NCBI GenBank assembly: GCA_964016885.1
Contig: OZ024740.1
Coordinates: 277,202,001-277,266,000 of the forward strand
Length of the DNA stretch: 64,000 bases
DNA from: Eledone cirrhosa
Lineage: Eukaryota
Reading direction: 5' to 3'
Positions 27,301 through 64,000 of the stretch are shown here, piece after piece. The translations under genes and the position numbers were made by a program. Within the stretch, counting starts at the first letter, position 1, and every line of letters begins with the position of its first letter. The notes below the pieces were generated by a model. It was not told the DNA's origin. It saw nothing but the letters and a program-made list of their open reading frames with translations, and searched no databases.

Positions 27301-30070
27301 CAACAATTAGTGGTTTGCTCTGAAAAGAGCGATTAGAATAGAGTCCATTAGGTTTAGTAAGGTTTTAGCTATAGAGAAAAATAGAGCAGAGGGAGAACTA
27401 TTTAGAAAATTAGACGAGGCGCTTAGCAAAGGCATCGCGACCGACGTACTTGCGGCGAATTTAGCCCTTGACCAATTCTTCAATGCAAAGCACGAAGGCT
27501 GCGTTGTCAGAGCTAGGGTGCGTGCTTTCAGACACGCGGAGACGAAAGTCGTTCAATGAGCCCGAGGGGCGTAGGCGCGTCGTGGCAACAAGCCACGATC
27601 CGGTCTTTGGTGGACCACAACGGGCGCATACTACTCGATCCTGGGCAAATGTGTGAAGCTTTTCAGCGACACTTCGCTCAGCTGTTCGGGTGCAGCGGCG
27701 GGCCGAGTAGAGGGATGGACTTTAGTGTCTACCTCGACGGACTGCCGCGGCTTTCGGCCACTGAGGCGGAGTGTTGCGAAAAGCCAATAACAGCAGCTGA
27801 AGTATGGGAGGCAATGACTGGCTGCACAAGGGGTAAATCGCCTGGGTTGCCCTATGAACTTTACGTACAGATGCCAGATTTGTTCGGAGTCCTCTTGGCG
27901 GACGTCTACTGCAACTGGCAACAGAACGGGAGAATTCCCAGCTCTGTGAGCCGAGAAGCGGTGGCGCTGCTTAGAAAGGATCCGAACAAGGGTGATAACA
28001 TAGATAATTTCAGTCCCATAACTCTGCTAAACACAGAGTTCAAGATTTTGGCCAAGGTGCTAGAAAAGAGGTTGGCGCTTGTCGTTGGTGGTCTTGTGGG
28101 AGAAGCGCAGACATGGCACGGGTGGGTCCTTGATCAATTTAGATCAGTCGAAAGCTTTCGATAGGGTCGACCATCGTTACCTAGCGGCAGTCCTGAGGGC
28201 GTCTGACTTTGGGCCCGTCTTCAGAGGCTGGATCGCTGCCATGCACAGCGACATCTGCTCTGTGGTGAGAGTGAACGGTCACCTTTCGGAACCGTTCAAT
28301 ATCATGCGCTCGGTCCGCCAAGGATGTCCCCTCTCGTCCCTCTTGTACGTATTGACTCTCGAGCCATTACTGCATAAACTGGAGACGTTGAGGGGGATCC
28401 CGCGCGAACTAGGATGCGGAAGATCCGTGTCAACAATGCGGACGATGTCACCGTAGTGGTGTCGAACGCCAAACACATCGAGGCGATCGGCACTACACTA
28501 AGAGAATACGAAGTGGTGACAAGAGCAATGATCAACCACGAAAAGTCAGTGGGCCTGCAGCTCGGCACATGAAGAGGCAGGTCTATGCCGTCCAACAGCA
28601 TCCAACAGGTCGGGCGCTGGACGGACGGACCGGTTAAATTGCTAGGGGTCTAGTTCAATCCGGACCTCCAGACGGACAAAAACTGGGACGAGGTGACGAG
28701 CAGGGTGGCTTCTCTCACCCAGAAATGGGCGGAGAGGAAGCTATCCCTGACAGGTCGAGCGGAGGTGGCTAACGCGTACATCCCGTCCGTCATCTAGTAC
28801 CGCCTGACCGTCGTACCTTGTCCTAAGCCACGCCTGACTGCGCTGGAGCGTTTGCTGTTTCACCTTTTGTGGAAAGGACGTGCTCCGAGTGTCAGGCGGT
28901 CCATCTGCTGTCAACACCCGCTACGTGGAAGGCAAGGCATGTCGTGTCTGATGATGCACAGACACGCGCTCAAGCTACGACATCTCCACCTCTTCCTCGA
29001 CGGTGATCATATGTGGTCGCCGTTTGCTAGACGCGTCTTTCCCCAGCTCGTCTTGACGGAGCTGCATCCTGGGTCAAGCGAAGACCGAGAGGGAGCGCCT
29101 GGAGACTGGAATGTCTTCAGGCGCTCACAGCCCTCAACCAATCGGGCAATGTGATCGGTGAAAATTCCGCATTGGCGTTCTATAGAGGATTAGTGGAGGG
29201 GAAGAGCGACGACGTACTTGGGGAAACTCTAGGCGTCGATGAAAATAATCTAACCAATCTCTTCGGAAGAACTTTCTGGCCGGGGCCTATGGACAACTTC
29301 CAGAAATCCCTGGCCTGGCAATGCTACCGAGGAGCTTTGCCAGTTCGGAATAAACTCTACAGGCATGGAGGTGCCGTCAGCTGGGCATTTCCGAGATGCG
29401 CGCAGGGCGACGAAACCGTCGTGCACGCACTCGTCCAGTGTCCGAGCATTGCTGACTTGTGGGTTTATGTCGAACATCTGCTGTCGCGTGTAGGACGGAT
29501 CCAGCTATCAGCTGAGTCTATCGTGAGGATTGCCCGGCCCTCTTTCTTTAGCCGGGAAGGGCAGGCAGTTTTTATCTGTCTGGTGGCCATGGTGAAAGAG
29601 ATAGTATGATGAACACGTTTGAAAGGGCTGAACACGAGCACTTACCTCTTCGATGATGTCCTGGTTAACTTTTTCAAATTTCATTTAAAAGGAAAGTCAG
29701 GGTAGAGAGGGAAGTGCTCTCTTCCCAGTATTTTGTTGAAAGATGGGTGAGAGAGGCAAGAATGGCCCGAGTGAATGGGTCTACTCTGAGTATGTGTCTG
29801 TAAATTAAAGGTGGAAAACTGGGAGAGGGCACTTGCCCTGGTGGTCAGGGTCACTGTGGATTTTTAATGGGCTTTCTCCACGAATCTCCCTAGGAAGTCC
29901 CCCCCCCTCCCCGTATTGGGGAATTTTTCATTGTTACATCATCTGTTTTTTTGTTACATCCTCTGTTTTTGTTTTTTACACGCAGAAATGCCCATTTGTA
30001 CCATCCTGTATTGTCCTGTACTGTCCTTAATGTCTACTTTATGTAAACCCTTGTAGTTAATAAAGAAAGC
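24304..30070 (+). pseudogene. Full-length but degenerate Tx1-like LINE (T1) in (TTA)n
   Basis: ORF1 pieces 24773-26437 (N-rich, SFAKAAK, CVVCGEGTHLRAFC knuckle); ORF2 ~26472-29803 APE+RT with many stops and frameshifts; taataaagaaagc(ATT)n end. Confidence 0.9.
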
Positions 30071-30217: not shown

Positions 30218-30243
30218 TTATTATTATTATTACTATTATTATT

Positions 30244-30528
30244 CCGAGTGAACGGACCCGCTCTGAGTATGCGCCTGTAGACTGAGGAGTGGGAAAACTG
30301 AGAGAGGGTCTTGCCCTGGTGGTCAGGGTGGCCGTGGTCTTTTGTGTGGTTTTCGCCACGAGTGACCCCTATTGGGGAATTTTTTGTTGTTTGATTTTTT
30401 TTTCTTAATATTTCTATCTTGTTATAACCTTTTTACACGGCCAAAACCCACTTTGTATCGTCCTGTACCGTTCTGTGCCGTCTCTAATGTTTATCTTCAT
30501 GTTAGCACTTGTGGCCAATAAAGAAACC
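30244..30528 (+). mobile_element. Tx1-like extreme 3' fragment
   Basis: Last ORF2 codons (RVNGPALSMRL*), cccctattgggg hairpin, cttgtggccaataaagaaacc(ATT)n. Confidence 0.82.
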
Positions 30529-30560
30529 ATTATTACTATTATTATTATTATTATTATTAT

Positions 30561-30769: not shown

Positions 30770-33300
30770 GTTGCATTTATCTTGCTTTATGTTCATACGA
30801 GTTATCACCAAGTCACAACCAGTGACCTCAAGAGACAACAAGGTCCGCCATGTTCAAGAAAGAACATACATACTCACACATGCATCTTTAGTGCTTAGAC
30901 TTGTGATGTACTTATATTGACAGAATCTTCCTTAGTATATGGGCAGTTCCCATTAGTACTATCTTTTGTATTTCTCCTGTACACGGGTTTCCTGGGATTT
31001 GCGATAAGTAATCATTAGACCCCTTATGTATCATTCTCAGAGCGCCTACAACCACTGGTATTGTTTTAGTTCTCAATTTCCACATTTTTCAAATTTCTAT
31101 CTCCAGGTCCTTATACTTGCCCAATTTTTCAAATTTTTTTATAGATACATTCTTGTCTATTGGAACTGACATATCAATTAGCAGGCATACCCTCTTTTTA
31201 AAGTCCTTCAATATTATACCAGGTCTATTTGCATCTATTTTTCGGTCTGTTTGGATGCTAAAGTTCCACAAGATTGAGATGTGATCTTTTTCAAGTATGG
31301 GAGGTGGTTGATGCTCCCACCACTGTGTGGCAAACTATCGAATGCATTTTTATAATCTATCCAAGCAATCGATAGATTTTTGTGTCTATTATGACAATCT
31401 TCCAGTATCATTTTGTTAACCAGAAGCTGATCCTTACAGCCATATGAGCCTCTATTACGCCCTTTCTGCTCAATGGGAAATGGGTCATTTGTTATCAGAT
31501 GGTCATATGTGTATTCAGTTAGGACTGATGTTAACATTTTATACATTGTGGTCAAGCAAGTTATCGGTCTGTAATTTTTGGGATTGTTTGTCTCATCATT
31601 CTTCGGAAGCAGGAATGTAATGCCGTTAACTAGCCATGATGGTATCTTTTCTGGCTCATTGTAAAGTTGGGCTAACAGCTCATGAGACTCTGTGAAGGCA
31701 TTTATCCAAAAGTTTTGTATTTTGTGTTTTCCTGGGGATTTCCATTTGCTGGTTTTTCTTAGCGCCAAGCGAAACAGTTCAACTGTTATATTTTCCCATA
31801 TTTGTTCCTCAAGGTGAGCTGTATCTTTCATTTGTCTATCTATCCATGGGGCATGTATGTTATGAACTTTTTCTTCGGCCCAGATCTTTTCCCAGAATTC
31901 GTGCACTTCCTCCTTGGGTGGTATTGATTTAGCAGTTATTGTTGACTTACCAATTTTTCTGTAGAAGTTTCTTTGGTTGTTTTTGAACATATTATTGTCC
32001 TTATAGAATCTAGATCGTTTTTCAAAGCGCCTTATACGAGTAGCTTTGGCCGACACTTTTTGCTTGATTATTTCTATCAGCATGTCTATGTCACTTGTTG
32101 ATTTTATACTGTACTTTTTTTTCAATTTTCTAAGTTTAGTTTGTTTAACATGTTCACCTACTTTATAGTTTGTTAACATTTCTATGTCAGATCGGAGAAG
32201 GTTTATTTGGCGATTGATGTAGATTTCTTGTGGGAATTCCTTTGTTTTTTCATCTTCACTCCACATAAGTGAGTGGTGACTTTAGCCGATGCATAATAGA
32301 GATGATTTAAATCAGTAATGTTTAGTTTGTTTGTGATGATAATGTTTTTGAGAATTATGTTAGTCTTGTGTATTATCTTTTGGTTCTGTTTGGAGTTCTG
32401 GGTCTTAGGGAGGGTGTCTCGTTGCCCCATGTCAGATTCTTTCATTTTCATCCATTCGATCATAATTTCATCCTTCAAGTTGGCAAGTTCATTCTCATTC
32501 ATTTCTTTATCATTTACGATCTTATTATTTTCATTTGGAGTTTCATCTTGAGCATGCACTCCCTCCACTTTTTCGATCCTTTCTTTAATTTGTTCTGTTG
32601 CCAGTGATTTCGCCCCAACCCTGGGATTCGAAGTGTTACAATTTACCTCGTTTTCACTGACACATGTTTCATTTTCCCTTCGCTGACTTTGTGCTAATAT
32701 CTTGATCTGATCAATTTCTATATCAGTTAGTAACTTTTTTCTTACAATATTTCTTCGTATATTGGCTAGTTTGTTACTGTCAATATAGCCTCTGTTTTCG
32801 GGATGTTTCTTTTTCCAGTTGATATATGTCTGTTCTGTATTCGATGTATTTGATGGGTAGTACATGGCAGTGTAGAAAGCCTCAAGGACGTCTTTATTAT
32901 CTTCCCTTGACCATTTTTCTCTCTTTTTCTTTGGATTTCTTGGTGGTGAGCATGGAGGGCCAACAGTAGGAGTATTCCGGTTATGGGAGGTCTCCAGCTC
33001 CGAAGTGATGGTAAGGTTTGAGCCATTAGCTGATTATTCGACCCCAGTCTGGTTCCTCTCTGAGGGACGCGGCCCTTTTTGACCCGAGTGACGGCCGATC
33101 CGGTATGAGATTTTATCATTAGACATTTACTTTATTTTGTCGCGTTTTATCCTTATCCGCCAAGGGGTAATCATTTCGTGTTACCACTTCTAGAACGAGT
33201 GTCAACCAAGACTAGAGGGGTCGTTCTCCCCTAGAGACACGGCTATTCCCCGCCGGCCGCCATCCCGGTATTTCTTGGTCACGGGGTTTTCTTTTTGTTG
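30770..33300 (-). pseudogene. R4/Dong-like family D element with 5'UTR and a large internal deletion
   Basis: 3' end near-identical to 22260-22805; N-terminal ORFs 32766-33119, 32203-32865 and 31235-32266 (KSPG, NYRPITC, AFDSLPH); jumps to the RLE region at ~31322. Confidence 0.88.
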
Positions 33301-39330: not shown

Positions 39331-39509
39331 TTTTGCGAGGTTTTTTATATGAAATCGTGTGTCGAAACAGATATTGTTATATTTGGGGAGGGTCATATTT
39401 GCGTAATATTGCCAGAATTAATAACAGAACACACTCACTGTTTGGTTGGTTTTCGCTTCTCGCTGTCTTTTATATATATATATCTGCGATCTAACTTACT
39501 CGGTCCTCA

Positions 39510-40889
39510 ATGTTGCCATTGACGGACCGGCCATTGACTGGGGCTAGTATCAAAACTACCCTAAAGGGCCACGTATTTAAGTTCAATGAGAAAATCTACA
39601 CCCAAAATGAGGGAGCAGCCATCGGCGTCAGCATAGCTGGTGATGTTGCCAGCCTTTTCATGGTATGGTGGGAAAGGAGACTTAAAGATCTCCTTAATGA
39701 AAGCTCCATAGACCTCATCATGTACTCTCGTTATGTAGACGATATCAATATAGTTATAAGAACACCCCCACTAGAGAGCACTAACAAGTTTGATTTAGAA
39801 CGTAGCACGATGGAAAGCATCCAGCAGATAGCTAATTCCATACACCAGAGTATAACTGTAACTATAGACTTCCCTTCCAAACACCCTAACAATAGACTAC
39901 CTGTATTAGACACAGAACTCTGGATTAACACTATAGACGAGAGAGCCCAAATTCTCCACTCACACTATGCTAAACGCATGGCCTCCAAATACCTGATACT
40001 CAAAAACTCAGCAATGTCCAGTAGTGCTAAGTTTAATATTCTGATCGCAGATTTGGTACGAGTGATGAAGAATGTGTCCAGCATGTGCGACCCAACAGAA
40101 ATGGAAGGACACATCCAACACTTCATCAACCGCATGCAGTTCTCTGGCTACAACCAAAGAGACAGAGTCAGAGTATACGAAGGAGCCATGGAAAAGTATA
40201 AGACCCTCATAGAACTGGACATGAAAGGAATTTGCCCACTATACAGGAGCAAATCATGGAATAGCTTAGATAGGGCTAGACATAAGATAGGGAAGGCCAC
40301 ATCATGGTACGACAACCAGAGATATCAGAGTGTCATGTTTGTGGACGCCACCCCTGGAGGGAAATTAGCTAACCAGTGTAGAAAGGCCCTGAGAAAGACC
40401 CACTTAAAAATAAAGGTGGTAGAAAAGCCAGGAACCACCATAAAATCCCTGATCAGCAAAACCTACCCTTTTAAGAAAACCCACTATACCAATAGGAAAT
40501 GTATCATATGTAAGGTGAACCCCCGGATAAACTGTAAAACTAGAAACGTAGTCTATAGCATAAGATGTACAGAGGGTACTTGCAGAAACATGACAACAAC
40601 ATACATAGGTGAGACAGCTCGTAGCATAGGTGAAAGGATAGACCAACACTGGGGGGAACTAAAAGGACGAAAAAACGGGTCAGTACTATACGAACATGCT
40701 AGACAACAACATGACGGTAACATAGACAACATAGAAATTAGAATAATATCTAAACATAGGAATGACCCAGCAGATAGGCAAATCAGAGAGGCCAGTGAAA
40801 TAGAAATTAGAAGACCAAAGCTAAACAGAAAGAATGAGTGGAACAACAACAACACCCAAACAAACAACACTGGCCTAAGAGAAGTATAA
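39510..40889 (+). CDS. Penelope-like RT (C-terminal part) + GIY-YIG endonuclease; first ~8 codons come from the inverted repeat
   Basis: FKFNEKIYTQNEGAAIG, YSRYVDD, LPVLD, CIIC..C, VVYSIRC...YIGETAR...RIDQH...REA...PKLN. Confidence 0.88.
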   Translation: MLPLTDRPLTGASIKTTLKGHVFKFNEKIYTQNEGAAIGVSIAGDVASLFMVWWERRLKDLLNESSIDLIMYSRYVDDINIVIRTPPLESTNKFDLERSTMESIQQIANSIHQSITVTIDFPSKHPNNRLPVLDTELWINTIDERAQILHSHYAKRMASKYLILKNSAMSSSAKFNILIADLVRVMKNVSSMCDPTEMEGHIQHFINRMQFSGYNQRDRVRVYEGAMEKYKTLIELDMKGICPLYRSKSWNSLDRARHKIGKATSWYDNQRYQSVMFVDATPGGKLANQCRKALRKTHLKIKVVEKPGTTIKSLISKTYPFKKTHYTNRKCIICKVNPRINCKTRNVVYSIRCTEGTCRNMTTTYIGETARSIGERIDQHWGELKGRKNGSVLYEHARQQHDGNIDNIEIRIISKHRNDPADRQIREASEIEIRRPKLNRKNEWNNNNTQTNNTGLREV

Positions 40890-41156
40890 ATAAGTAAATA
40901 AAATAAAATAAAATAAGATAAATAAATACATACACAAGCACATAAACACACACTAGTCACCCAGCAGACACAACACTATACACACTAGTCACACATCACA
41001 CATAACACTATACACACACGCAAACGCATGCGCAAAGAAGACAAAATAAAATAAGATAAACAAACAAGCAAATAAATAAATAAATATATAGACAGACTGA
41101 ACAAAAAAAAAATGGCGTAGACATACAACACAACAGGAGGAACAATGAATATAACA

Positions 41157-41205
41157 CCACTGACGATGTTGCAGATGTGCAACGAAAGATTTATGTAAAT
41201 TATGT
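41157..41205 (+). ncRNA. Degenerate hammerhead in the PLE pseudo-LTR
   Basis: CTGACGA t-gttgca-gatg-tgcaac GAAA gattt-atgt-aaat TA; stems I and III imperfect. Confidence 0.6.
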
Positions 41206-41427
41206 AAACTATATATATGTGTTTGTGTCTATATTGTATCTGTATTATTTTTGACCGCCGGTCAGTCAATGGCAACATTGAGGACCGAGTAAGTTAGATC
41301 GCAGATATATATATATAAAAGACAGCGAGAAGCGAAAACCAACCAAACAGTGAGTGTGTTCTGTTATTAATTCTGGCAATATTACGCAAATATGACCCTC
41401 CCCAAATATAACAATATATATATATAT

Positions 41428-50798: not shown

Positions 50799-51063
50799 TA
50801 TTATTGTTGTTGTTGTCGTTATTATTATTGTTGTTATTATTATTATTATTATTGACGAAAGTGGATGTACGTTTTTTGAAGCTCCGTGAGTAAGCAATTT
50901 TTGAGGATTAATTGTAGAGAATTGTTTATTTTTTGTACCGCTGAAGCATTATAAGACATTAATTTGTATCCTGTGAAGGAATAACTCATAATATTTGGGC
51001 CTTTTGGCCCAAATATTTGAACTTTATTTTGAAAAAAAATAATAATTTTTTTCTCAAAAAAAC

Positions 51064-52974
51064 ATGGCGGAGCCACGCCCCCTAGAGGCGGGTCTGCTGT
51101 CGTGCAACGGCGACTTGAGCGTTGAGAGGAGAGGTGAGGCGAGGAGCGCCACCAGCACGAATGTGAGCAGCGACAGTGCCAGCACCAACGGGCCGAGCGG
51201 CGCGGAAGGTGGTAACAGCGACAACACCAACACCAACAAGCCGAACAGCGCAGAAGGTGGTAATAGCGAGAGCACCAACAAAACGAACAGCACAGAGAGT
51301 AATAGTAGCGACAGCAGCAGCACCAACAAGGCCAACAGCACAGAAGGTAACCACGACACAGGGGAGAACAACAACAGCAATAGCAGCAGCAACACCAACA
51401 AGAACAACAACAGTGACAACACCAACAAGAACACTTTCGCTGCTGTGGCAGCGGCTAAAAGGAGACCATGCTACAGCATCGACCTAACCAACAGAGAGGA
51501 AAAGTTGGCCCAGGCCTGGAAAATCATAAATCAAGAGCAGACCTGGGCAAACTTAACTGTCCCGGCAGAAGCCATTGAGGCAGTGGAAAAAAGAACGGTG
51601 CATTTCAGATGCATCTCAGTAGAGACAAAGAGGGCAGCGATAATCGCCCAAGCTGACATAGAAGCCGCACTGAAATACATCAGAGAGGACACAGACTTCA
51701 TAGAGAGGGGCAGGCAATACGGCACCGTTTCGGTGCTGTTCAAGTCTGAAGCCCTCGCTGTGAAGCATTCAATGACCCCTTGCAAAACCAGCAAGGTCAT
51801 AATGTACCCCTCCCACATGGGAAAACGAATAGCACGTGTGCGCATTCCCAGGATTCCACCAGGACTTGATATGTGGTGGCTCCTGGGTTGCGTAATCGTG
51901 GAAGGAACGGATACAGTCCCGGTAGAGGCAACGAGAACTGCCAGGGACGACTGGTCCGGGGTTGATCTGGAGATACTGCTCCAAATCAGACCCGAAAACG
52001 TAAAAACAATCCCGGACCACATCCGCCTCCAAAACGGGAGGGTGTTGCATATAATGACTGAGGGCAAAAGGCCGCATTGTTTCCTTTGTGGGGAAACGAC
52101 ACACTTGCGAGCCTTCTGCCCTCAACTGCCGAAAAGCGCAAGGGGTCGAAAGATTCCACTGCTGGCGACGCCGGGACAAGGACCACCAGCAACACCGTCA
52201 ACAATGGAACCACCAAAATTGCACACCCAGGGGGGAAACGAGGAAAGCTCTCCCATTCCCCCTCCCCCCCAAAATACACACACGAACAAGAACATAAACA
52301 CTCACTCAGACACAAACACGCTCACAGCCACAGACCCCTCATCCTCCAGCAGTGAAGATGAGGGAAAACCAAAGTCCCCCAAAATACAAAAAACAAAACA
52401 CAAAAAAAAAAGAAATCCACAAAGCACAAACACCCCCACAAAACAAAATACACACACCACCCACACAAACATTTTCCCCACAGCATCACCAACACAACCA
52501 CCAAAATCCCCCAAACGCAAACAAGCTAAACAGACACAAGAACAAATAGACACACAAACATCAGAAACTACAGACACCCCACCCACAACAAACGCAGACA
52601 CAATAGAAACAACACTAACAAAGCTATCACCACCACAATCACACGAACAAATAAAACCCGAGCAACAAAACATTAAAAACTTCGTGCTTGCCAGAAGGGC
52701 CAACAAGGAATTGATGGCCCATGTAGCACGAAGCACAAACATCGAAAAAGACGGGGAAACATTTGAAGCGAGCACATTTCGCGTACCAGATAATTTGCTT
52801 CTGATGCGAATGTCGCTCGCTTCATACAAAGAAATTCGAAAGAGCTTTCCTCGGGATGTGGGAACCCCGAACGTAAAACCCACGTCAAGACTATTAAAGG
52901 GGTTCCCAAAAGAAACCCCACAAACCATGGAGGTCGAACCACCCGACCTTCACAAGACCCCGGAAGGTAAGTAA
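51064..52974 (+). CDS. Tx1-like ORF1p (N/S/T-rich head, probable RRM, CCHC knuckle, P/T-rich linker), 636 aa
   Basis: TFAAVAA motif, CFLCGETTHLRAFC; homologous to the T1 ORF1 pieces. Confidence 0.88.
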   Translation: MAEPRPLEAGLLSCNGDLSVERRGEARSATSTNVSSDSASTNGPSGAEGGNSDNTNTNKPNSAEGGNSESTNKTNSTESNSSDSSSTNKANSTEGNHDTGENNNSNSSSNTNKNNNSDNTNKNTFAAVAAAKRRPCYSIDLTNREEKLAQAWKIINQEQTWANLTVPAEAIEAVEKRTVHFRCISVETKRAAIIAQADIEAALKYIREDTDFIERGRQYGTVSVLFKSEALAVKHSMTPCKTSKVIMYPSHMGKRIARVRIPRIPPGLDMWWLLGCVIVEGTDTVPVEATRTARDDWSGVDLEILLQIRPENVKTIPDHIRLQNGRVLHIMTEGKRPHCFLCGETTHLRAFCPQLPKSARGRKIPLLATPGQGPPATPSTMEPPKLHTQGGNEESSPIPPPPQNTHTNKNINTHSDTNTLTATDPSSSSSEDEGKPKSPKIQKTKHKKKRNPQSTNTPTKQNTHTTHTNIFPTASPTQPPKSPKRKQAKQTQEQIDTQTSETTDTPPTTNADTIETTLTKLSPPQSHEQIKPEQQNIKNFVLARRANKELMAHVARSTNIEKDGETFEASTFRVPDNLLLMRMSLASYKEIRKSFPRDVGTPNVKPTSRLLKGFPKETPQTMEVEPPDLHKTPEGK

Positions 52975-53003
52975 ACCTTTCCTCTCCCATTCATCCTGCC
53001 AGC

Positions 53004-56000
53004 ATGGCCATAAGAGTAGGAAGTTTAAATGTTCGTGGCCTGGGGTCGCCCTGGAAGCAAGGTCACTTGCTCAACGACCTCAGGTCACTAGGAATGGATG
53101 TAATTGCCATCAGCGAGACCAGAATTTCCGACACACGCGCACTGGCGCCGATTTTCGACGATTATCAGATCTTTGCATCTGTTAGTCGGCCGGGAATGGG
53201 AGGTGGAGTGGCTGTGCTGTTTAGGAAATGTCTGGATCTCGAGGTAAGGTCAATCTTCCGGGATCCTGACGGAAAGTTGGTGGTCCTGGACGTGAGCAAT
53301 AGCGAAGGTGGTGCCTTTAGACTGGTGGCCGTCTACGCCCCTACTGGGGCCGGTCGGCCGGACTTCTTTAGGCGCCTGGAAAACTTTCTGCTTACGTCTC
53401 GCCCTTTACTGTTAATAGGGGATTGGAATGGCATCTTAGAAGCACGCTGGGATTGTGTGGGAGTATCTGATAGGAGCGGGGGGTGCAAAAGCCTCAAGTA
53501 CCTGATCAGCCAGTTTCAACTGTCTGACAGGTACCGACTAGATTTCCCTAATGCGCCAGTATGGACCTGGACCAATCGCATAGGGTCATCTAGATCGTAC
53601 ATAGATAGGATTTTCATTAGGAAAAGAGATAGAAATAGTGTAGGATGTCCACATTTTAAAACGGTTGCCTATTCAGATCACAAGCTTGTGATCTGTATGG
53701 TCGACCTAGATAAGACACGTAGGTTAGGACCTAGCTACTGGAAGCTAAACATGTCGTTTCCGGCACGTAAAGCTTACAGGGACCGGGTCAACAACTTAGT
53801 TAAGCAAAAGTTGACAGGGGGGGTTGTCAACAACAGGTGGTGGGGGGCACTCAAAAGAGAGATTAGAGCAACCTCGATAGGATTTAGCAAAGAAGTAGCA
53901 ATAGAGAAAAATAGAAAGGAGGAGGGGCTGATAGCTAAGTTAGACGAGGCTATTTGTAGTGGCATTGCAACAGACGTGCTAGCGGCGAGAATGGCACTAG
54001 ACCATTTCTTCAATGCGAAACACGAAGGTTGCATTGTCAGAGCTAAGGCGCGTGCTCTGAGGAACGAGGGAACCAAAGCTGCCCGATGGGCTCGCTTTGC
54101 AGAGACGCAGCGTGGAAATAAAACCACAATTCGGTCTTTGACGGATCGAGATGGACACGAACTGAGCGATTCCAAGCGGATGTGTGAGGCCTTTCGCCAG
54201 CACTTTGCTCGATTGTTCGGGAGGATGGGTGAGTCGGAGACGGCGGCGGACTTCAGTCCCTACCTCGACGGCTTGCCACGCCTCTCGACGGCCGACGCTG
54301 AGCGCTGCGAAGAGCCGATAACATCAGCCGAAATTCAGGACGCCCTTGTCGGCTGCTCGAGTCGCAAGTCACCCGGTTTGGATGGTCTGCCCTACGAGCT
54401 TTACGTAAATATGCCAGACTTGTTCTCCGATCTCCTCGAAGCGCTCTACTGCAACTGGCAGCAGAACGGGAGCATTCCCAGTTCTGTGAGCCGTGGCGTA
54501 GTGACGCTGATAAGGAAAGACGAGAACAAGAGGGACACACTAGATAATTTCAGGCCCATAACCCTGCTCAACACAGAGTTTAAGATTTTGGCCAAGGTGT
54601 TAGCGAAAAGGTTGGCGCTTGTCGTCAAAGATTTGGTTGGGGAGGCGCAAACTTGCGCAATCCCGACCAGGTCCATACACGACAACCTCCACCTCATGCG
54701 ATACATCATAGAGAGGGTTGGGTGCAAACCTGGCTTCGGTGGGGCTCTGATCAATTTAGATCAATCGAAAGCATTCGATAGGGTCGACCATCGGTACTTG
54801 GAGGCTGTCCTCGAGGCGGCTGGCTTCGGCCCCGTCTTCAGAAGCTGGATCGCTGCAATGTACAGCGGCATCCGCTCGGTGGTCAAAGTTAATGGCCACC
54901 TCTCGGAACCGTTTCAGATCTCTCGATCGGTCCGTCAAGGGTGCCCTCTCTCCTCACTTCTGTACGTATTGACTCTTGAGCCTCTACTGCGGAAGCTGGA
55001 GTTGTTGCAGGGCATCCCGCTCGAACCGGGACGTAGAAAGGCTGCGTCCGCTTATGCGGACGACATCACCGTGATGGTGTCGGACACCTCGGAAATCGAG
55101 GTGATCCGCACCCATTTGGAGGAATATGAAAGGTTGACGGGAGCAAAACTTAACCCGGAAAAGTCGGTGGGCTTGCAGCTCGGCACCTGGAGAGGCAAGT
55201 CCATGCCGTCCAACAGCGTCGTTGGGCGCTGGACAGACGGACCGGTAAAGTTGCTCGGGGTTTGGTTCGGACCAGACCTCCAGGTGGATAAGAATTGGGA
55301 CGAGGTGACGAGCAGGATAGCCAACCTCACCCAGAAATGGGCTGAGAGAAAGCTATCACTGAAAGGGCGGGCGGAGGTGGCGAACGCGTACATCGCGTCC
55401 GTCATCTACTACCGCCTGACCGTCGTGCCTTGCCCCCGTCCACGCCTCGCCAATTTGGAACGGCTCCTTTTCAAATTTTTGTGGAGGGGACGGGTCCCGT
55501 TGGTGAGGCGGTCCATCTGCTGCCAGCACCCTCTTCGTGGAGGGCTGGGCATGCCGTGGCTAATGATGCGCAGACATGCGCTGAGGCTGCGACATCTCCA
55601 GATATTTTGCCTAAACGGTGAACAGGTGTGGTCGCCGTTTGTTAGACGGGCCTTTCCGCAGCTCATCTCTTTGACTGAGCTGCAGTCCTGGGTCAAGAAG
55701 AGACCGAGACTGGGCGACTGGCATCTGGAATGTTGCCAGGCGCTCACTGCACTCTGCAAGGTGGGCAATGCGGTCAGTGGAACTTCCACTCAAGATTTCT
55801 ATAGAGGATTAGTGGAGGGCAAGTGCGATGACGTACTAGGAGAGGCTCTGGGCGTCAACGAAGTAGAACTGACCAGTATGTTCCGGAGGACTTTCGAGCC
55901 GGGGACGATGGATAACTTCCAGAAATCCCTCGCTTGGCAGTGCTACCGGGGGGCGCTGCCGGTTCGGGATAAACTCTACAGGCACGGAAGTGCTGTCAGA

Positions 56001-56423
56001 CGAACCTGCCCGAGATGCGCGCAGAGCGACGAAACCGTTCTGCACGCACTCGTCCAGTGTCCGTGCATTGCTGACTTGTGGGGTTATGTCGAACAGCTAT
56101 TGTCGCGTGTAGAACGGATCCGGCTATCGTCCGAGTCCATAGTGAAGATTGACCCGCCGCCTTCTTTTGGTCAGGAAGGGCAGGCAATTTTCCTCTGCCT
56201 GGTGGCAGTAGCGAAAGAGGTTGCATGGTGGACCAGGTTGAAAGGACTGAAGACAGACACTTTTCTCTTCGGCCAATCCCTCATCAACTTCTTCAAGTTT
56301 CACTTGGAAAGGAAGGTGAGGGTGGAGAGAGAAGTGCTGCCCCCCAGTACATTTACTGAAAGGTGGGTGAATGTGGCGAGAATGGCCCGCGTGAGTGGGC
56401 CTACTCTGATCATGCGCCTGTAG
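53004..56423 (+). CDS. Tx1-like ORF2p: APE endonuclease + reverse transcriptase + C-terminal Zn finger, 1139 aa
   Basis: SLNVRG, SETR, VYAP, GDWN, SYIDRIF, SDHK; KSPGLDG, NFRPITLLN, LDQSKAFDRV, RQGCPLS, AYADD; CPRC..H...C. Confidence 0.95.
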   Translation: MAIRVGSLNVRGLGSPWKQGHLLNDLRSLGMDVIAISETRISDTRALAPIFDDYQIFASVSRPGMGGGVAVLFRKCLDLEVRSIFRDPDGKLVVLDVSNSEGGAFRLVAVYAPTGAGRPDFFRRLENFLLTSRPLLLIGDWNGILEARWDCVGVSDRSGGCKSLKYLISQFQLSDRYRLDFPNAPVWTWTNRIGSSRSYIDRIFIRKRDRNSVGCPHFKTVAYSDHKLVICMVDLDKTRRLGPSYWKLNMSFPARKAYRDRVNNLVKQKLTGGVVNNRWWGALKREIRATSIGFSKEVAIEKNRKEEGLIAKLDEAICSGIATDVLAARMALDHFFNAKHEGCIVRAKARALRNEGTKAARWARFAETQRGNKTTIRSLTDRDGHELSDSKRMCEAFRQHFARLFGRMGESETAADFSPYLDGLPRLSTADAERCEEPITSAEIQDALVGCSSRKSPGLDGLPYELYVNMPDLFSDLLEALYCNWQQNGSIPSSVSRGVVTLIRKDENKRDTLDNFRPITLLNTEFKILAKVLAKRLALVVKDLVGEAQTCAIPTRSIHDNLHLMRYIIERVGCKPGFGGALINLDQSKAFDRVDHRYLEAVLEAAGFGPVFRSWIAAMYSGIRSVVKVNGHLSEPFQISRSVRQGCPLSSLLYVLTLEPLLRKLELLQGIPLEPGRRKAASAYADDITVMVSDTSEIEVIRTHLEEYERLTGAKLNPEKSVGLQLGTWRGKSMPSNSVVGRWTDGPVKLLGVWFGPDLQVDKNWDEVTSRIANLTQKWAERKLSLKGRAEVANAYIASVIYYRLTVVPCPRPRLANLERLLFKFLWRGRVPLVRRSICCQHPLRGGLGMPWLMMRRHALRLRHLQIFCLNGEQVWSPFVRRAFPQLISLTELQSWVKKRPRLGDWHLECCQALTALCKVGNAVSGTSTQDFYRGLVEGKCDDVLGEALGVNEVELTSMFRRTFEPGTMDNFQKSLAWQCYRGALPVRDKLYRHGSAVRRTCPRCAQSDETVLHALVQCPCIADLWGYVEQLLSRVERIRLSSESIVKIDPPPSFGQEGQAIFLCLVAVAKEVAWWTRLKGLKTDTFLFGQSLINFFKFHLERKVRVEREVLPPSTFTERWVNVARMARVSGPTLIMRL

Positions 56424-56701
56424 GCTGGTGAATTCGAGAAGGAGAGGGGTGCCCTTCCCGGGTGCCCTAGGAGCGTCGGGTGGCTCAGGACTGGTGGGGT
56501 GCTTGAGTCAACCCTGGGTGGTGATCCCTCTTATTGGGGAACTTTCATTGTTGTATTTTTATTGTTATTTTGTCTTTTTGTTATTTATACTTACTCGATC
56601 TCTATGTAAACCCCCACTGTCCCTGTCTATTGTGTTGTCCCCTATATGTCGGCCCTTGTGGCCAATAAATGAAATCATTATTATTATTATTGTTATTAAT
56701 A

Positions 56702-58179: not shown

Positions 58180-58547
58180 TTAGGTACTACTTTAGAAGAA
58201 GAATAAGAGTGGAGAGAGAGGCACTGCACCCTAATAGATTTACTGAAAGGTGGGTGAATGTAGCAAAAATGGCCCGAGTGATTGAGCCTTCTCTGTATAT
58301 AAACCTGTAGGATGAATGATGCTAGCAAAAGGAGGAAAGGAGCACTTGCACAACATGCTCCTCAAGTTGTGGGTTATTCTATCTACGGGGTATTAAACAA
58401 CCCATTCGTAACGCCCCTCCCCCCTATTGGGGTTTTCGATTGTTGAATTTGTTTGTTTCAATATTTTTACACGACTGTATGTAAAATCCCCGACAATCCC
58501 TTGTATTGTCCCCCTTTCTTGTGCGCCCTTGTGGCAAATAAAGACAT
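58180..58547 (+). mobile_element. Tx1-like 3' fragment in (TATC)n
   Basis: RRRIRVEREALHPNRFTERWVNVAKMARV..L*, gcccttgtggcaaataaagac then atatctatct. Confidence 0.8.
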
Positions 58548-58966: not shown

Positions 58967-61900
58967 CCAACGCGGAAGATGACCCTAATTCGTCGTCAGA
59001 CGAGGAGGAGCACTTCCACACAATCAAAAGAAAAAAAAGAAAACACACCTCAGACACACAAATGAAAAAAAACCCTCCCCAAAACATAACACTGACACCA
59101 ACACAAAAGAGCTCACAACAACAGCAAACAAAAAACGCCACACAAAAACAAAAACATGCATACACATACATAAATACAAGAAACAAAAAACTGTTAAACA
59201 TTGTGTACAACAACAATCTAATAAAAACACAAGGGCCTAACTTCACCCAGGCAGGGGATTTCCCCCACCTCAAAATGATTAAGGCCCCACAGGACACCTA
59301 TAAAACTTTAAAAAACAATTTTAAAGAGGACGTGGGTCCCCCCTGCGTCGGCTCCATTAACCGCGTCCTCCTAAAAACTATCCCACCCCCTCCCCAAACA
59401 CCCACACAACTCCAAGCTCCCCAACCACACAACACACTGATGCCCCCACACTTCCACAAACCACCACCCCACCCAACAACCCATCCCCCACCCTAATGGA
59501 AATTGTGCAGCCCGATACCCGGGACGCAGAGAGGTAAGTGCCTTTTCTCTTCACCACCAACATGGCTATGCTAAGAGTAGGCTGTTTAAATGCGCGTGGC
59601 CTGGGCTCAACTTGGAAGCAAGCAATGCTTCTAAATGACCTCAGGTCACAACGTATAGATGTGATGGTTATTTGCGAGGCCCGGATCAGCAACGTGCGAC
59701 AGCTGGCCCCCACCTTTGATGACTTTGAGATGCACGCATCTCTCTGTCAGCCCGGAGGTGGGGGTGGAGTTGTCGTTCTGCTGCAAAAACATCTGGGTCT
59801 CGCTACACAGATGGTACATTTTGACCCGGAGGGTCGACTAGTCGTTCTGGACCTTGGCAGTGGTAAAGGCGGAGCGTTTAGGTTGGTAGCCGCCTACGAC
59901 CCTTTCGGGTCAATGCGGCCGGACTTCTTCCATCGTCTGGAGACTTTTCTAGGGACGTCCCGCTTCTTGCTATTAGTGGGGGACTGGAATGGTATCCTAG
60001 ATGCACGCTGGGACTACGTAGGGGCCTGCCCCGATAGAGAGGGGTGTAATAGCCTCAAAGGGTTAATCGGTCGATTTGACCTGGCCGATAGATATCGACT
60101 AGATTTTCCGACTGCGCCAACCTGGACTTGGGCAAATCGTAGCGGATCATCTAGGTCGTACCTAGATAGGTTCTTAGTTAGAATTAAGGATAAGGACTTT
60201 TTAAGTTGTCCAAAAATGCGCATGGTTGGCTATTCAGACCACAAATTAGTGACCTGCATGGTCAACCTTGACAGAACTCATAGACAGGACCCCGGTTACT
60301 GGAAGCTCAACTTGTCCTTGCCGGCAAGTAGAGCCTACAGGAATCGGATTAGTACGTTAGTTAAGGAACGGTTGACTGGAGCGATCGTCAACAGCAGGTG
60401 GTGGGTATCTCTAAAGAGAGAGATTAGAGTAGTCTCGATAGAATTTAGTAAGGTTCTAGCTGCGGATAGGAATAGGAAGGAAAGGGAGCTAATAGATAGA
60501 GTAGAAGAGGCAATTAGAAGCGGCGACGTGGCCAGAGTGCTAGCGGCGAGAACGGCTTTGAGCCAGTTTTTCGACGCGAAGCACGAAAGCTGCGTTGTCC
60601 GAAGTAAAATACGTGCTCTAGGGAACGAGGGGACCAAAGCTGTTAGCTGGGCCCGCGTGACAGAGGCCAACAGTGGAACTAAATCCACCATCCGGTCTTT
60701 GCGAGACCTGGATGGACGGGCGATTCTTGAGCCTAAGCAGATGTGTGAGGCCTTTCAAAGGCACTTTGCCCGACTGTTCGGGAGGGGCGGGGAGCCGGTT
60801 GGGAACGTGGACTTCGGTCCATACCTCGACGGCCTGCCGCGCCTCTCGGACAGGGAGGCGAAGTCCTGCGAGGAGCCGATTTCGGCCGCTGAGATAGAGG
60901 ACGTGCTGAGCCAATGCGGCAAACGCAAATCCCCGGGTCTCGATGGTCTTCCTTACGAATTATATCTAGCTATGCCGGACTTGTTCCCCGATCTCCTCGA
61001 GGCGGTCTACTGCAACTGGCAACAGAACGGGAGAATTCCCTGTACTGTGACCAAGGGCGTAGTCACGCTAGTGAGGAAGGACGAGAACAAGGGGGACGAA
61101 ATAAGTAACTTCAGGCCCATAACTTTGCTAAATACAGAGTTACAGATTTTGGCCAAGGTGCTAGCAAAGAGGTTAGCGCTTGTCGTGGGCAACCTGGTGG
61201 GAGATGCGCAGACATGCGCTATCCCGTCCAGGTCCATCCATGACAACCTCCACCTCATGCGATACATCATAGAGAGGGTTGGGAACGAACCCGGCTTTGG
61301 TGGGGCTCTGATTAACTTGGATCAATCTAAGGCGTTCGATAGGGTCGACCATGGTTACCTGGATGCGGTGCTAGCGGCGGCAGGCTTCGGACCCGTTTTC
61401 AGGGGCTGGATCACTGCTATGCACAGCAGCCGCATCTGCTCTAGGGTCAAGGTGAACGGCTACCTCTCGGAGCCGTTCAAAATCGCGCGGTCCATCCGAC
61501 AAGGGTGCCCTCTCTCCTCCCTTCTGTATGTGTTGACTCTCGATCCACTACTGCGGAAGTTGGAGTTGTTGCAGGGCATCCCTTTGGAACCGGGATTGCG
61601 GAAAGCGGTGTCGGCCTACGCCGATGACGTGACAGTAATGGTGTCGACGGCCTCCGAAATCGAGGCGGTCGGCACCTTACTGGAGGAGTACGAAAAGTTC
61701 ACAGGGGCTAAGCTGAACCGGGACAAGTCGATCGGTTTGCAACTCGGCACGTGGAGGGGCAGACCTATGCCCTCCGATGGCGTCGTCGGACGCTGGACGG
61801 AGGGCCCGGTGAAGTTGCTCGGGGTCTGGTTCGGACCGGACCTCCAGGTGGAGAAAAACTGGGCGGAGGTTACGAATAGGGTGTTTGCACTGACCCAGAA

Positions 61901-63262
61901 GTGGGCCAGTTGCAAACTATCGCTGATAGGTCGGGCGGAGGTGGCGAACACCTACATAGCGTCCGTCATCTACTACCGCCTGACCGTAGTGCCCTGCCCA
62001 AGGGAAACCCTCACCAAGATGGAGCGCGCGCTCTTCCAATTCCTTTGGAAGAGGCGGGCTCCTATGGTGAGGAGATCCATCTGCTGTCAACACCCTTCGA
62101 AAGGAGGGCTGGGGATGCCGTGGCTAATGATGCGTAAACACGCATTAAGGCTACGGCACCTCTACGTATTCCTCACCGGACAACCGGTGTGGGCCTCGTT
62201 TGTGAGACGAACCTTTCCCAGACTCGTCTCACTCACCGAGCTGCAATCCTGGGTCAAGCAAAGACCGAGAAAACTGGGCGCCTGGCACACTGAGTGTGCC
62301 CAGGCGCTCACCGCCCTCTGGCAGGCGGATCCGGTTATCAGTGGAGACTCCACCGCAACATTCTATAGAGGGCTGGTACGCAGCAGGTGCGACGACGCCC
62401 TCGGAGAAGCCCTAGACATGGAGGAGGACGAACTGGCCAGCCTGTTCGGTAGGACATTCAGCCCGGCACCTATGGACAACTTCGAGAAGTCCCTGGCCTG
62501 GCAGTGCTACCGAGGGGCTTTACCCGTTCGAGAAAGGCTCTACAGACACGGGCGCCCGGGTAGGGACCCCGCCAAAAAGATCTGTCCCAGATGCGTGTGC
62601 GACGAGGAAACCGTTGCACACGCATTGGTACACTGCTCGGGCGTAGCCGATCTGTGGGGCTATGTCGAACAACTGCTGTCAAGGGTGGGACCGATCCGGT
62701 TGACCACCGAGTCTATTGTAATGATCAAGCCGCCTCCCCCCTTCAAAGATGAAGCAGAGGCGGTGTTTCTGTGCGTAATAGCCATGGCGAAAGAGGTTGT
62801 ATGGTGGACGCGTCTGAAAGGACTGAGGTCAGGCACCTTTCTCTCTGGCCAACAACTGGTCCGTTTCTTCCGATATCATTTCGGAAGAAGGATCAGGATG
62901 GAGAGAGAGGTGCTGCACCCCAGCCGTTTCTATGAAAGATGGGTGAAAGTGGCGAGAATGGCCCGTGTGAATGGGCCTTCACTCTACATCAGACTATAGG
63001 TGAGGAAGATGAAAGACCAAGGGAGCACCCCTTCTCTGTGCTCCTGAGGAGAAGGGTTGCACACTTTTTTCGGGGGTGTGTGCGACCCCCCAAGGCGCCT
63101 CCTCTCTATTGAGGATTTTGTTAAAAATTTTATTTTTTGTTATATCTTATTTTATTTTTATATTTTGTTATTGCCTCCTCCTTATTGAGGACGCCTTTTT
63201 GTGTAAACTCCCCCCTTTGTACTTGTCCCACTTTTGATGCCCTAGTGGCAAATAAAAGAAAC
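58967..63262 (+). mobile_element. 5'-truncated Tx1-like LINE (T3) in (TATC)n
   Basis: ORF1 C-terminus (FKEDVGPP..MEIVQPDTRDAER*, frameshifted), intact ORF2, (TATC)n on both sides. Confidence 0.9.
59562..62999 (+). CDS. Tx1-like ORF2p (APE + RT + Zn finger), open frame; likely start is ATG 59562, not GTG 59538
   Basis: CLNARG, GDWN, SYLDRF, SDHK, RQGCPLS, AYADD, CPRC..H...C; caacATG context as in T1. Confidence 0.93.
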   Translation: MAMLRVGCLNARGLGSTWKQAMLLNDLRSQRIDVMVICEARISNVRQLAPTFDDFEMHASLCQPGGGGGVVVLLQKHLGLATQMVHFDPEGRLVVLDLGSGKGGAFRLVAAYDPFGSMRPDFFHRLETFLGTSRFLLLVGDWNGILDARWDYVGACPDREGCNSLKGLIGRFDLADRYRLDFPTAPTWTWANRSGSSRSYLDRFLVRIKDKDFLSCPKMRMVGYSDHKLVTCMVNLDRTHRQDPGYWKLNLSLPASRAYRNRISTLVKERLTGAIVNSRWWVSLKREIRVVSIEFSKVLAADRNRKERELIDRVEEAIRSGDVARVLAARTALSQFFDAKHESCVVRSKIRALGNEGTKAVSWARVTEANSGTKSTIRSLRDLDGRAILEPKQMCEAFQRHFARLFGRGGEPVGNVDFGPYLDGLPRLSDREAKSCEEPISAAEIEDVLSQCGKRKSPGLDGLPYELYLAMPDLFPDLLEAVYCNWQQNGRIPCTVTKGVVTLVRKDENKGDEISNFRPITLLNTELQILAKVLAKRLALVVGNLVGDAQTCAIPSRSIHDNLHLMRYIIERVGNEPGFGGALINLDQSKAFDRVDHGYLDAVLAAAGFGPVFRGWITAMHSSRICSRVKVNGYLSEPFKIARSIRQGCPLSSLLYVLTLDPLLRKLELLQGIPLEPGLRKAVSAYADDVTVMVSTASEIEAVGTLLEEYEKFTGAKLNRDKSIGLQLGTWRGRPMPSDGVVGRWTEGPVKLLGVWFGPDLQVEKNWAEVTNRVFALTQKWASCKLSLIGRAEVANTYIASVIYYRLTVVPCPRETLTKMERALFQFLWKRRAPMVRRSICCQHPSKGGLGMPWLMMRKHALRLRHLYVFLTGQPVWASFVRRTFPRLVSLTELQSWVKQRPRKLGAWHTECAQALTALWQADPVISGDSTATFYRGLVRSRCDDALGEALDMEEDELASLFGRTFSPAPMDNFEKSLAWQCYRGALPVRERLYRHGRPGRDPAKKICPRCVCDEETVAHALVHCSGVADLWGYVEQLLSRVGPIRLTTESIVMIKPPPPFKDEAEAVFLCVIAMAKEVVWWTRLKGLRSGTFLSGQQLVRFFRYHFGRRIRMEREVLHPSRFYERWVKVARMARVNGPSLYIRL

Positions 63263-63443: not shown

Positions 63444-63464
63444 ATATCTATCTATCTATATATC

Positions 63465-64000
63465 TTCGTGGTTGATAGACGTGCATTACTTCGCTCCGGA
63501 TTTTTACGGATTATTGTTAAAAAAAACTGTGAGTTCATTGTTCAATTTGTTAGTATTGTTTAGATTAACCCCTTGTCTGGGCCTTCAAACGTTGAGTTAA
63601 CTAATGTTCGCCCCTTTTTGGGGCGAAATTTTCATCTCAAAAATCTGTGTAGACTTGGTAGTCAATAATGGATCCCATTTCAACCTCGCACACTGTACTG
63701 AGTGCCACTCCCACTAAGAAAAGTGGTGGAGGGAAGGTAGGAGTACAAAGCTTGCAGCCTTCCCCCCTCGCCTTATCGAAAAACGTTGTAAATATTGCAA
63801 CCACGGAACCAAACCCGGTAAATAATACCAGCACCAACAAGAAGAATGACAATAACACCACAACCAACAACTGCAACAATAACAACACCAAGGAAAATAT
63901 GAACAACATCAACAACAGTGACAACAATAACAGCAACAAGAAAGACAACAACACCAAAACAACGTTCGCACAAACTGTAAAAAAAACAGATCTATACACG
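63465..64000 (+). mobile_element. 5' end of another Tx1-like LINE (T4), cut by the window end; ORF1 from ATG 63668
   Basis: MDPISTSH...N-rich tract...TTFAQTVKK parallels T1 and T2 ORF1; starts directly after (TATC)n. Confidence 0.75.

Follow-up and report, generated by a model that had tools for sequence, protein, structure and literature searches.

The window, a stretch of 64,000 nucleotides of Eledone cirrhosa DNA, holds at positions 50854–56680 of the + strand an intact, young, full-length LINE of the L1 group, assigned to family C and flanked by (ATT)n repeats. ORF1 (51064–52974, +) translates to 636 aa with a CX2CX4HX4C knuckle; it gave no match in a Pfam search, and a homologue search with its residues 120–370 found none. 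It is followed by a pyrimidine-rich inter-ORF spacer (52976–53003, +) reaching the context of the ORF2 ATG, by ORF2 (53004–56423, +; 1139 aa), which contains an APE endonuclease, a reverse transcriptase and a zf-RVT region (Pfam domains Exo_endo_phos, RVT_1 and zf-RVT), and by a 3′UTR (56424–56680, +) with AATAAA at 56664–56669 and an (ATT)n tail. The ORF2 product matched human L1 ORF2p, its closest solved relative, at E 5e-57, and R2 at E 3e-22. Judged by these domains, the element belongs to the L1 group, with APE, RT and a C-terminal zinc domain in ORF2, and its layout (a separate ORF1, short spacer, poly(A) signal, repeat tail, and many dispersed or truncated copies) is that of the group as well. 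It is putatively a member of the Tx1 clade; the simple-repeat target preference and the CCHC knuckle of ORF1 are Tx1-like traits.

About 9,000 copies (9125) carrying the ORF1/ORF2 junction were found in the genome. Family A, which is young, is the commonest (35 of 80 sampled copies), and the ORF1 proteins of different families are 25–40% identical. Copies of A and C are flanked on both sides by (ATT)n and those of D by (ATCT)n. At other genomic sites the family C element also forms arrays, head to tail, with a repeat unit of 5840 bp and (ATT)n at the joints; its subfamily has 342 exact 3′-end matches in the genome. A search for more distant genomic families with a 43%-identical outside protein returned family A alone, and a cross-species search gave three short metagenome pieces, none containing the junction, so that the conservation figures below refer to this genome only.

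A putative 5′ splice site at the end of ORF1

The earlier note, made from the window alone, had proposed that ORF2 is excised as a precise intron, from a donor at the ORF1 stop to an acceptor at the ORF2 stop. Its donor, G|GTAAGT, was seen at all three places named, 26434, 52967 and 59534, and it does fall in different codon phases, the reading frames having been set from intact genomic copies. In the family C element, the U1-type site occupies 52964–52972 (+), overlapping the final ORF1 codons, with the exon ending at 52966 in phase 1. The site of the family A copy (26431–26439, +) includes the ORF1 TAA and is in phase 2, as is that of the family D copy (59531–59539, +), the ORF1 of which is 5′-truncated. 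Families A and D have the donor in phase 2, and B and C in phase 1.

Among the 80 sampled copies, the motif G|GT(A/G)(A/G)GT over the ORF1 stop was exact in 73, had one change in 5 and was absent in 2; it is kept across four families and in both codon phases. A lineage variant, GTAGGT (L256–L258, L150), replaces TAA by TAG as the ORF1 stop and stays within the donor consensus, here the general U1 5′ splice-site consensus. Of 221 fourfold sites compared in three families, only 74 are unchanged in all three, so that the conservation of the donor exceeds chance: were seven of its sites neutral, they would be kept by accident with a probability of about 5e-4, and with four neutral sites the figure is 0.013. 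These comparisons strongly support a 5′ splice site at the end of ORF1 that is kept at the nucleotide level whatever its phase, with a U1 consensus conserved beyond coding needs.

The 3′ side of the predicted intron

The candidate 3′ splice site at the ORF2 stop TAG (56400–56423, +) has a pyrimidine fraction of 0.65, and its AG at 56423 ranks 12th in pyrimidine content among the 263 AGs downstream of the donor; in nine TAG copies the rank of the stop AG was 3–20 of about 260. ORF2 ends in CTR-TAG at five of the six 3′ ends in the window, as had been reported, and a YAG with a pyrimidine tract (fraction 0.65–0.8) is found at the ORF2 stop in B, C and D. It is absent in A, which ends ORF2 in TAA (29801–29803, + in the window copy) and has no acceptor there. 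An acceptor placed exactly on the ORF2 stop is thus no family-wide feature, and the explanation of the TAA copy as mere degeneration fails likewise: TAA was found in 30 of the 30 readable among 35 sampled family A copies, and in 29 of the 29 intact ORF2s among 30 further copies. The TAA is a family trait and not decay. Conservation of the GTAAGT/TAG pair across families therefore holds for the donor, present in four families, and breaks down for the TAG. The YAG expected of an intron is not conserved at the ORF2 stop, and the retention of the donor in family A without it counts against the splicing reading. Nor is TAG retention in the other families above chance, since third-position G is common to C and D1–D3 at 37 of 89 Lys/Glu/Gln sites; it lies within neutral expectation.

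Other acceptors can be proposed beyond or ahead of the stop. A U-rich tract with CAG in the family A 3′UTR (29960–29985, +) is an alternative candidate that would append 19 codons in the phase-2 frame; it is present in 26 of 30 family A copies and in L098, both phase 2, and the phase-1 family B has CAC. In family D, an AG lies seven bases before the TAG in 25 of 25 TAG copies (17 of them CAG), against 0 of 11 in B and C, and its use would end the phase-2 ORF1 at the stop of ORF2 itself. Each family has some 3′ acceptor candidate, all of them picked after the fact, and no acceptor is common to all families. The CTGAY branch-like motif, said to occur in several ends, was present in only two of the six window ends. 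A Leu codon and the codon that follows account for it, and its A, which precedes the start of the exon by 15 nt, is too near the acceptor for a branch point (expected 18–40 nt upstream of the AG); no branch point is conserved.

Reading frames behind the predicted join

Because splicing would join the exons right at the end of ORF1, translation of a spliced product would have to finish at a stop supplied by the 3′ exon. The predicted joins do end ORF1 at the lengths that had been given. After the join at 56424, ORF1 would be closed in the phase-1 frame by the TGA at 56429–56431 (+), whereas the phase-2 frame stays open for 99 codons. The other stops that had been listed are also present: at 21925, in the phase-1 frame, behind the TAG ending at 21922 of a family C 3′ fragment (21762–22180, +); at 29806 in the family A copy; at 30283 (TGA), behind the TAG ending at 30280 of a family B-type fragment (30243–30530, +); and at 58313 (TGA), behind the TAG ending at 58310 of a D-like fragment (58180–58545, +). 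The family D ORF2 (59562–62999, +; 1145 aa) has candidate acceptors in a CAG ending at 62992 and a TAG ending at 62999, with a TGA at 63001–63003 in the phase-2 frame. Frames overlapping the end of ORF2 are short, the longest reaching 22 codons.

Of 54 matches the first 30 were taken; 28 of these could be parsed and gave 22 TAG ends (21 C-type and one D-type). The phase-1 frame met a stop within 0–3 codons in all 22 and the phase-2 frame in 4, and the phase-1-frame stops varied in codon and place. Such a stop was likewise present in 5/5 B and 5/5 C TAG copies. Conversely, in D1, L256/L257, L258 and the element adjoining the window, TGA or TAA is the first phase-2 codon, and the phase-1 frame has no stop for 13–52 codons. 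A stop directly after the TAG is not a general rule, as it is missing in 11 of 25 family D TAG copies. Family A keeps the phase-1 stop despite its phase-2 donor, as does L098; therefore, such stops can persist without a matching splice. About two independent contrasts underlie the phase match, and the post hoc choice among AGs inflates the fit. Most lineages without a phase-matched stop behind the TAG do have another AG close by as a candidate. With that limit, ORF2 excision is plausible, and the phase-matched stops lend it some support.

There is also a D-like lineage with a phase-1-frame stop, in which the donor phase is unreadable (L243, L253 and L254 are truncated and L255 is deleted).

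The search for traces of splicing in genomic copies and contigs

Retroposed fusions of ORF1 to the 3′UTR, which had been suggested as a sign of splicing, were sought in the assembly, and none was found within the patterns tested. In the family C subfamily there were no matches for the exon end followed by G and a non-T, and none of the 342 3′ ends had a non-T before the acceptor AG. Family D (about 2,700 copies) gave one pattern match and family A (about 3,400 copies) gave 9 + 9, two of them shared, none joined to the 3′UTR or to an AG acceptor; these copy numbers are extrapolated as 24/80 and 30/80 of 9125. Intron-less retroposed copies thus numbered zero. None of 19 internal deletions among the 80 copies begins at the donor, and none recurs. 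It was found that 169 of 175 ORF2-killing events are distinct, indicating a strong cis preference. Because ORF2-dead RNAs are almost never re-mobilised, the absence of spliced retrocopies is a weak test. Lesions of ORF1 were private in 23 of 23 cases in A1, and the shared lesions in A2 lie mostly within one A-run; ORF1-dead masters have therefore not spread, and there is no sign of a free supply of ORF1p in trans.

Four contig-only runs of unrecorded kind (X1, X2, X4, X5) were compared with the element. Contigs of X4 span both the donor (52923–53498) and the ORF2 stop (56360–56664) in unspliced form, and none of the 14 joints listed for this run equals the predicted join; contigs being prone to drop variants, this is given no weight in either direction. 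Breaks in X4 at 52952, at about 51796 and at 56360 were considered as splice points and rejected, as they coincide with exact 30-mers common to sister subfamilies; a search for a form that departs from the element behind 52952 gave 16 matches, all of them diverged copies that run on into ORF2. A 6-base 3′UTR variant of X4 occurs in 86 genomic copies and not at one locus.

Discussion

The best reading, which we place a little below an even chance, is optional splicing from the conserved donor to a family-specific 3′ acceptor, producing an ORF1-only RNA. U1 would recognise the conserved 5′ splice site across the ORF1 stop, and part of the transcripts would be spliced to an acceptor at or just past the ORF2 end that differs between families, with a predicted intron of 3.4–3.6 kb and the normal 3′ end retained. 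The product would be an mRNA with ORF1 alone that retains its poly(A) end and may supply extra ORF1p, and the unspliced RNA would serve as ORF2 mRNA and as template. An ORF1-only product with its junction at the stop would escape junction-triggered decay. We tentatively extend this to the suggestion that nearly all of ORF2 is an optional intron, in which donor phase, acceptor and downstream stop co-evolve in each lineage, in a Copia-like strategy. Excision of ORF2 as first proposed thus keeps its donor and its phase-matched stops and loses the acceptor fixed at the ORF2 stop and the processed copies.

The main rival, which we consider somewhat unlikely, is that the motif is an orphan landing pad at which U1 blocks premature cleavage and polyadenylation or aids elongation, with little or no splicing. 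The perfect retention of the donor in family A, which has no acceptor at the ORF2 end, and the lack of processed copies speak for it, as does the fact that 13 of the 15 intact copies listed have AATAAA or ATTAAA 74–491 nt ahead of the donor; a splicing-independent role of U1 is known in the Copia element EVD, as far as the available part of PMC5580714 describes it. However, in four of five representatives synonymous-codon shuffles have about as many poly(A) hexamers as ORF1 and ORF2 themselves, with no excess or depletion beyond composition, so that no special threat is evident, and a landing pad leaves unexplained both the overlap with the ORF1 stop and the phase-matched stops behind ORF2. 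It is improbable that the motif is instead a translation or RNA signal resembling a U1 site, such as one for termination-reinitiation at ORF2, or that its conservation is accidental. Reinitiation signals act at a stop shortly before a downstream ATG, and the motif lies at the stop, 27–52 nt before the ORF2 ATG; but its phase relative to the stop codon varies, lineage changes remain within the 5′ splice-site consensus, and the probabilities given above stand against accident.

Splicing of the donor to acceptors outside the element's 3′ end, whether in host exons, in the copy that follows in an array or, by back-splicing, within ORF1, would give an ORF1-only or circular RNA without a fixed partner site. 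The head-to-tail arrays and clusters, and the lack of a single acceptor common to all families, would suit such a scheme, which is nevertheless decidedly improbable: selection on the master element for an unpredictable partner would be hard to maintain, the join deletes the ORF1 stop and would often leave none, and chance or rearrangement seems to account for the three matches (L162, L164, L166) that depart from the element at the donor. Hardly credible is a mini-intron of 28–55 nt over the spacer, which would fuse ORF1 to ORF2 or free the ORF2 start. Every family has the pyrimidine tract after the donor, and AGs occur near the ORF2 start, but an AG precedes the ATG only in some C copies and the intron would be very short. 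With ORF2 still encoded, its RNA would moreover be an efficient template in cis, but there is no such copy in A, where both patterns cover it, nor among the fetched junctions, in which C and part of D are incompletely covered; for family A the mini-intron is largely refuted.

The demand of LINEs for ORF1p far exceeds that for ORF2p, and the ratio is generally ascribed to inefficient ORF2 translation on one bicistronic RNA. A perfect donor on the ORF1 stop in about 9,000 copies points to control by RNA processing, convergent with Copia. Full-text literature searches found no description of a comparable cis-element in LINEs and, as far as they show, it would be new for LINEs whether it serves splicing or U1 protection, the two leading readings. 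Host transcripts, too, could be affected by thousands of strong donors scattered over the genome.

Several known systems resemble the arrangement proposed here. HAL1 and HeT-A are genomic, non-autonomous, ORF1-only LINE derivatives and share with it an RNA that has ORF1 and a LINE 3′ end but lacks ORF2; they are genomic elements, whereas the ORF1-only form here would exist as RNA only. Kibi/Koshi-like Tx1-type elements are microsatellite-targeting members of the L1 group and share with the element an EN-RT-zinc ORF2, a CCHC ORF1, simple-repeat insertion and tandem arrays; no splice signal at their ORF border was found in literature searches. L1-Tx1 families are reported from Octopus vulgaris in the available part of PMC13282606. 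Human L1, likewise an L1-group LINE, has functional splice sites, and retroposed spliced L1 RNAs (SpIREs) make up 131 of 6,609 full-length L1s (PMC5860796). According to the available part of that report, the human donors lie in the 5′UTR and their products are dead ends, and none is described there at the ORF1 stop, where the donor lies here; the spliced human RNAs were retroposed, in contrast to the absence of spliced retrocopies found here.

A precedent from another class is given by Copia elements, in which gag-only RNA is made from a conserved U1 site (PMC5580714). In Arabidopsis EVD (Ty1/Copia), as the available part of PMC5580714 describes it, a U1-type donor is likewise conserved at the border between structural and enzymatic genes, splicing gives a new stop right after the junction, as predicted here, and U1 also protects the full-length RNA. 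EVD differs in being an LTR element in which gag and pol share one frame and a short intron is coupled to premature polyadenylation (PMC5580714), whereas the present element is non-LTR, with two ORFs, a predicted intron of several kilobases and its usual 3′ end; and splicing has been shown in EVD (PMC5580714), while in this LINE we infer it. No poly(A) signal is conserved a short way downstream of the LINE donor. The element is not a member of the Copia shGAG system, but by analogy it may work alike.

Structure and families of the element

The full-length LINE at 50854-56680 encodes an ORF1 of 636 aa with a CCHC knuckle (51064-52974) and an ORF2 of 1139 aa (53004-56423), in which a domain search identified APE endonuclease, RT, and zf-RVT domains. 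Among solved structures, L1 ORF2p was closest to this ORF2. The nearest named homologue, a protein of Argonauta hians, matched with 67% identity across 59% of the query, which makes an octopod host probable. Simple-repeat targeting agrees with the provisional label "Tx1" used in the earlier note. The subfamily of this element is young, because its ORF1 end was 100% identical in 40/40 scored matches, 30/30 fetched matches to that end read on into ORF2, 342 exact 3′ ends were present in the genome, and some copies formed 5840-bp head-to-tail arrays with (ATT)n at the joints. In one such array, at 423.36-423.42 Mb of G000 C1 (loci L230 and L231), about ten 5840-bp units that are nearly identical follow one another with nothing but (ATT)n between them, and further such pairs and arrays turned up among the genomic matches to the subfamily.

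A degenerate ORF2-start pattern gave 9125 genomic matches, and the copies sampled, the first 80 of 100 matches listed, were assigned to families A (35), D (30), B (7), and C (7, including the 50854-56680 element), with 1 other. These copies (L077-L156) contained 19 internal deletions of 62-1989 bp, no two alike. Subfamilies A1 and A2 (L121 vs L093) were 97% identical in ORF2 and only 39% in ORF1, which has been swapped through recombination immediately upstream of the donor.

Several other LINE copies in the window also carry an RT but belong to another type, recognized by eye from a C-terminal restriction-like nuclease motif (1095-4604, 19425-21760, 22399-23691, and 31235-32865); one has an intact ORF of 1169 aa, and one sits between two Tx1-like fragments. 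At 39371-41417, 161-nt inverted repeats (99%) enclose an RT/GIY-YIG-like ORF of 459 aa (39510-40889), an arrangement that looks Penelope-like by eye, and a 3′ fragment of a B/A-like copy lacking the ORF2 end and the 3′UTR start lies at 18593-19330.

The donor at the ORF1 stop

The claim that G|GTAAGT occurs at the ORF1/ORF2 junction in differing codon phases was borne out: GGTAAGT was exact in 73 of the 80 copies, had one change in 5, and was missing from 2. The donor is in phase 2 in families A and D, where it contains the ORF1 TAA, and in phase 1 in families B and C, where the ORF1 stop comes after it. From family to family, ORF1 proteins share 25-40% identity and differ in their last residues, the inter-ORF spacer is 27-52 nt, and only 74/221 fourfold sites of ORF2 show no variation among A, C, and D. 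From the fourfold-site rate, the chance of staying unchanged is ~5e-4 for seven neutral bases and 0.013 for four. Further lineages have GTAGGT, another standard donor form, and there the ORF1 stop becomes TAG. Conservation of the donor acts on nucleotides, not codons, and, measured against the U1 consensus, the best interpretation of the donor is a U1 site.

A second donor-like word, GTGAGT, is found at 50886-50891, ~30 nt into the 5′UTR; the 5′ ends of other families are also near donor-like words, as is likewise the case in human L1. The sequence from 51796 to 52966, immediately preceded by AG, is a candidate internal exon or circle. In X4, a contig-only run of unrecorded kind, the 3′ half of ORF1 (51796-52952) had a mean depth of 191-197 and the 3′ end one of 348, compared to ~6-24 for ORF2 and 20 for the 5′ part of ORF1; the depth in X1 and X2 was flat. 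The depth of contigs is no measure by which the parts of one gene can be ranked.

The ORF2 end as a candidate acceptor

The ORF2 stop of family A was TAA in all 30 readable copies (of 35; 4 lacked the end and 1 was shifted) and in 29/29 intact ORF2s among 30 additional copies. TAA is thus not the degenerate exception that it had been taken for, and a precise acceptor at the ORF2 stop, judged from these codons, fails as a family-wide rule. The expected joint conservation of GTAAGT and TAG held for GTAAGT, and for TAG in most copies of B (5/7), C (5/7), and D (25/30), to be set against a shared third-position G at 37/89 comparable synonymous sites. CTR before the stop is a conserved Leu codon, and the branch-like CTGAY, said to mark several ends, was present in 2/6 ORF2 ends of the window.

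Other features favor a splice. In the nine intact TAG copies scored, the ORF2-stop AG ranked 3-20 of ~260 AGs in pyrimidine content. The phase-1 frame reached a stop, by several different codons, at most three codons past TAG in 22/22 TAG ends (drawn from 28 parsed of 30 loci; 21 C-type), compared to 4/22 in the phase-2 frame and 12/22 in the ORF2 frame. In four D-clade lineages, the phase-2 frame opens with TGA or TAA and the phase-1 frame is open for 13-52 codons. The proposed stop just after the ORF2 TAG was absent from 11/25 D TAG copies, which had none for 26-95 codons. A further D-clade element, beginning at the right edge of the window (63460-64000, L232), has a phase-2 donor and TGA directly past the ORF2 TAG.

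Alternative AGs, picked after the fact, include one seven bases before TAG in 25/25 D TAG copies (0/11 in B and C), which would end phase-2 ORF1 at the stop of ORF2, and a U-rich CAG in the 3′UTR of family A (26/30 copies) and locus L098, which would add ~19 codons; family B has CAC at that position. A and L098 retain the phase-1 stop despite phase-2 donors, which argues against over-reading the phase match, and the contrast in stop and donor phase is essentially one of clade versus clade.

Search for processed copies

No retroposed copy with ORF1 fused to the 3′UTR, the kind to be looked for according to the earlier note, was found in the C subfamily, D, or A within the patterns used, which include all named candidate acceptors and only part of all possible ones. 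For the subfamily of 50854-56680, a pattern in which the exon end runs on into G and then a non-T gave 0 matches in the genome, and a non-T before the acceptor AG occurred in 0 of the 342 3′ ends. One pattern for family D gave 1 match, an insertion, among ~2,700 copies, and two for family A gave 9 matches each (2 shared) and no processed copy among ~3,400, these denominators being extrapolated from 24/80 and 30/80 copies. The family A matches were small changes reading on into ORF2, three unrelated or rearranged sequences, and one deletion (L160) that begins at the donor and stops inside ORF2, where 3 bases of microhomology but no AG mark its end.

ORF2-killing events numbered 175 in 65 copies, and 169 were distinct, which indicates that ORF2-less RNAs are hardly ever mobilised. 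The lack of processed copies therefore counts little against excision of ORF2. ORF1 lesions were private too, save for slips in A-runs, and gave no hint that ORF1p acts freely in trans; this speaks mildly against the idea that most ORF1p comes from an ORF1 mRNA of its own.

Discussion

The donor site, its phases, the candidate acceptors, and the downstream stops are observed directly. The reading that we tentatively favor, at a little under even confidence, is that U1 binds the donor and that, in part of the transcripts, splicing links the end of ORF1 to a 3′ acceptor; this would yield an ORF1-only RNA of ~2.3 kb whose poly(A) end is the normal one, and the RNA left unspliced would stay as the ORF2 mRNA and template. 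U1 binding alone, which would keep the long RNA from being cleaved early at a 3′ site, is the main rival and somewhat less probable; poly(A) hexamer counts lend it no special support. Splicing and U1 protection are compatible, not mutually exclusive.

Both are more probable than the remaining readings. A non-U1 signal or an accident is improbable, and splicing of the donor to partners elsewhere than at the 3′ end of the element is slightly more so. A mini-intron over the inter-ORF spacer, fusing the ORFs, could use this donor, but the absence of processed copies weighs heavily against it, since its RNA would retain ORF2, and we consider it very improbable.

The conserved donor is a genuine cis-element that had so far gone unremarked, in elements of a known kind; the function proposed for it, though attractive, is a candidate only. 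A full-text literature search, mostly outside subscription journals and Repbase reports, returned no LINE whose ORF1 stop bears a conserved donor or whose ORF2 is excised, and a term search of the main text of an octopus repeat paper (PMC13282606) found no splicing, introns, or ORF1. In human L1, ~2% of full-length copies derive from spliced RNA, and these spliced RNAs keep ORF2, unlike the ORF2 excision proposed here (PMC5860796). For the Copia element EVD, both splicing and U1 protection have been demonstrated (PMC5580714); for the present LINE both are candidate functions.
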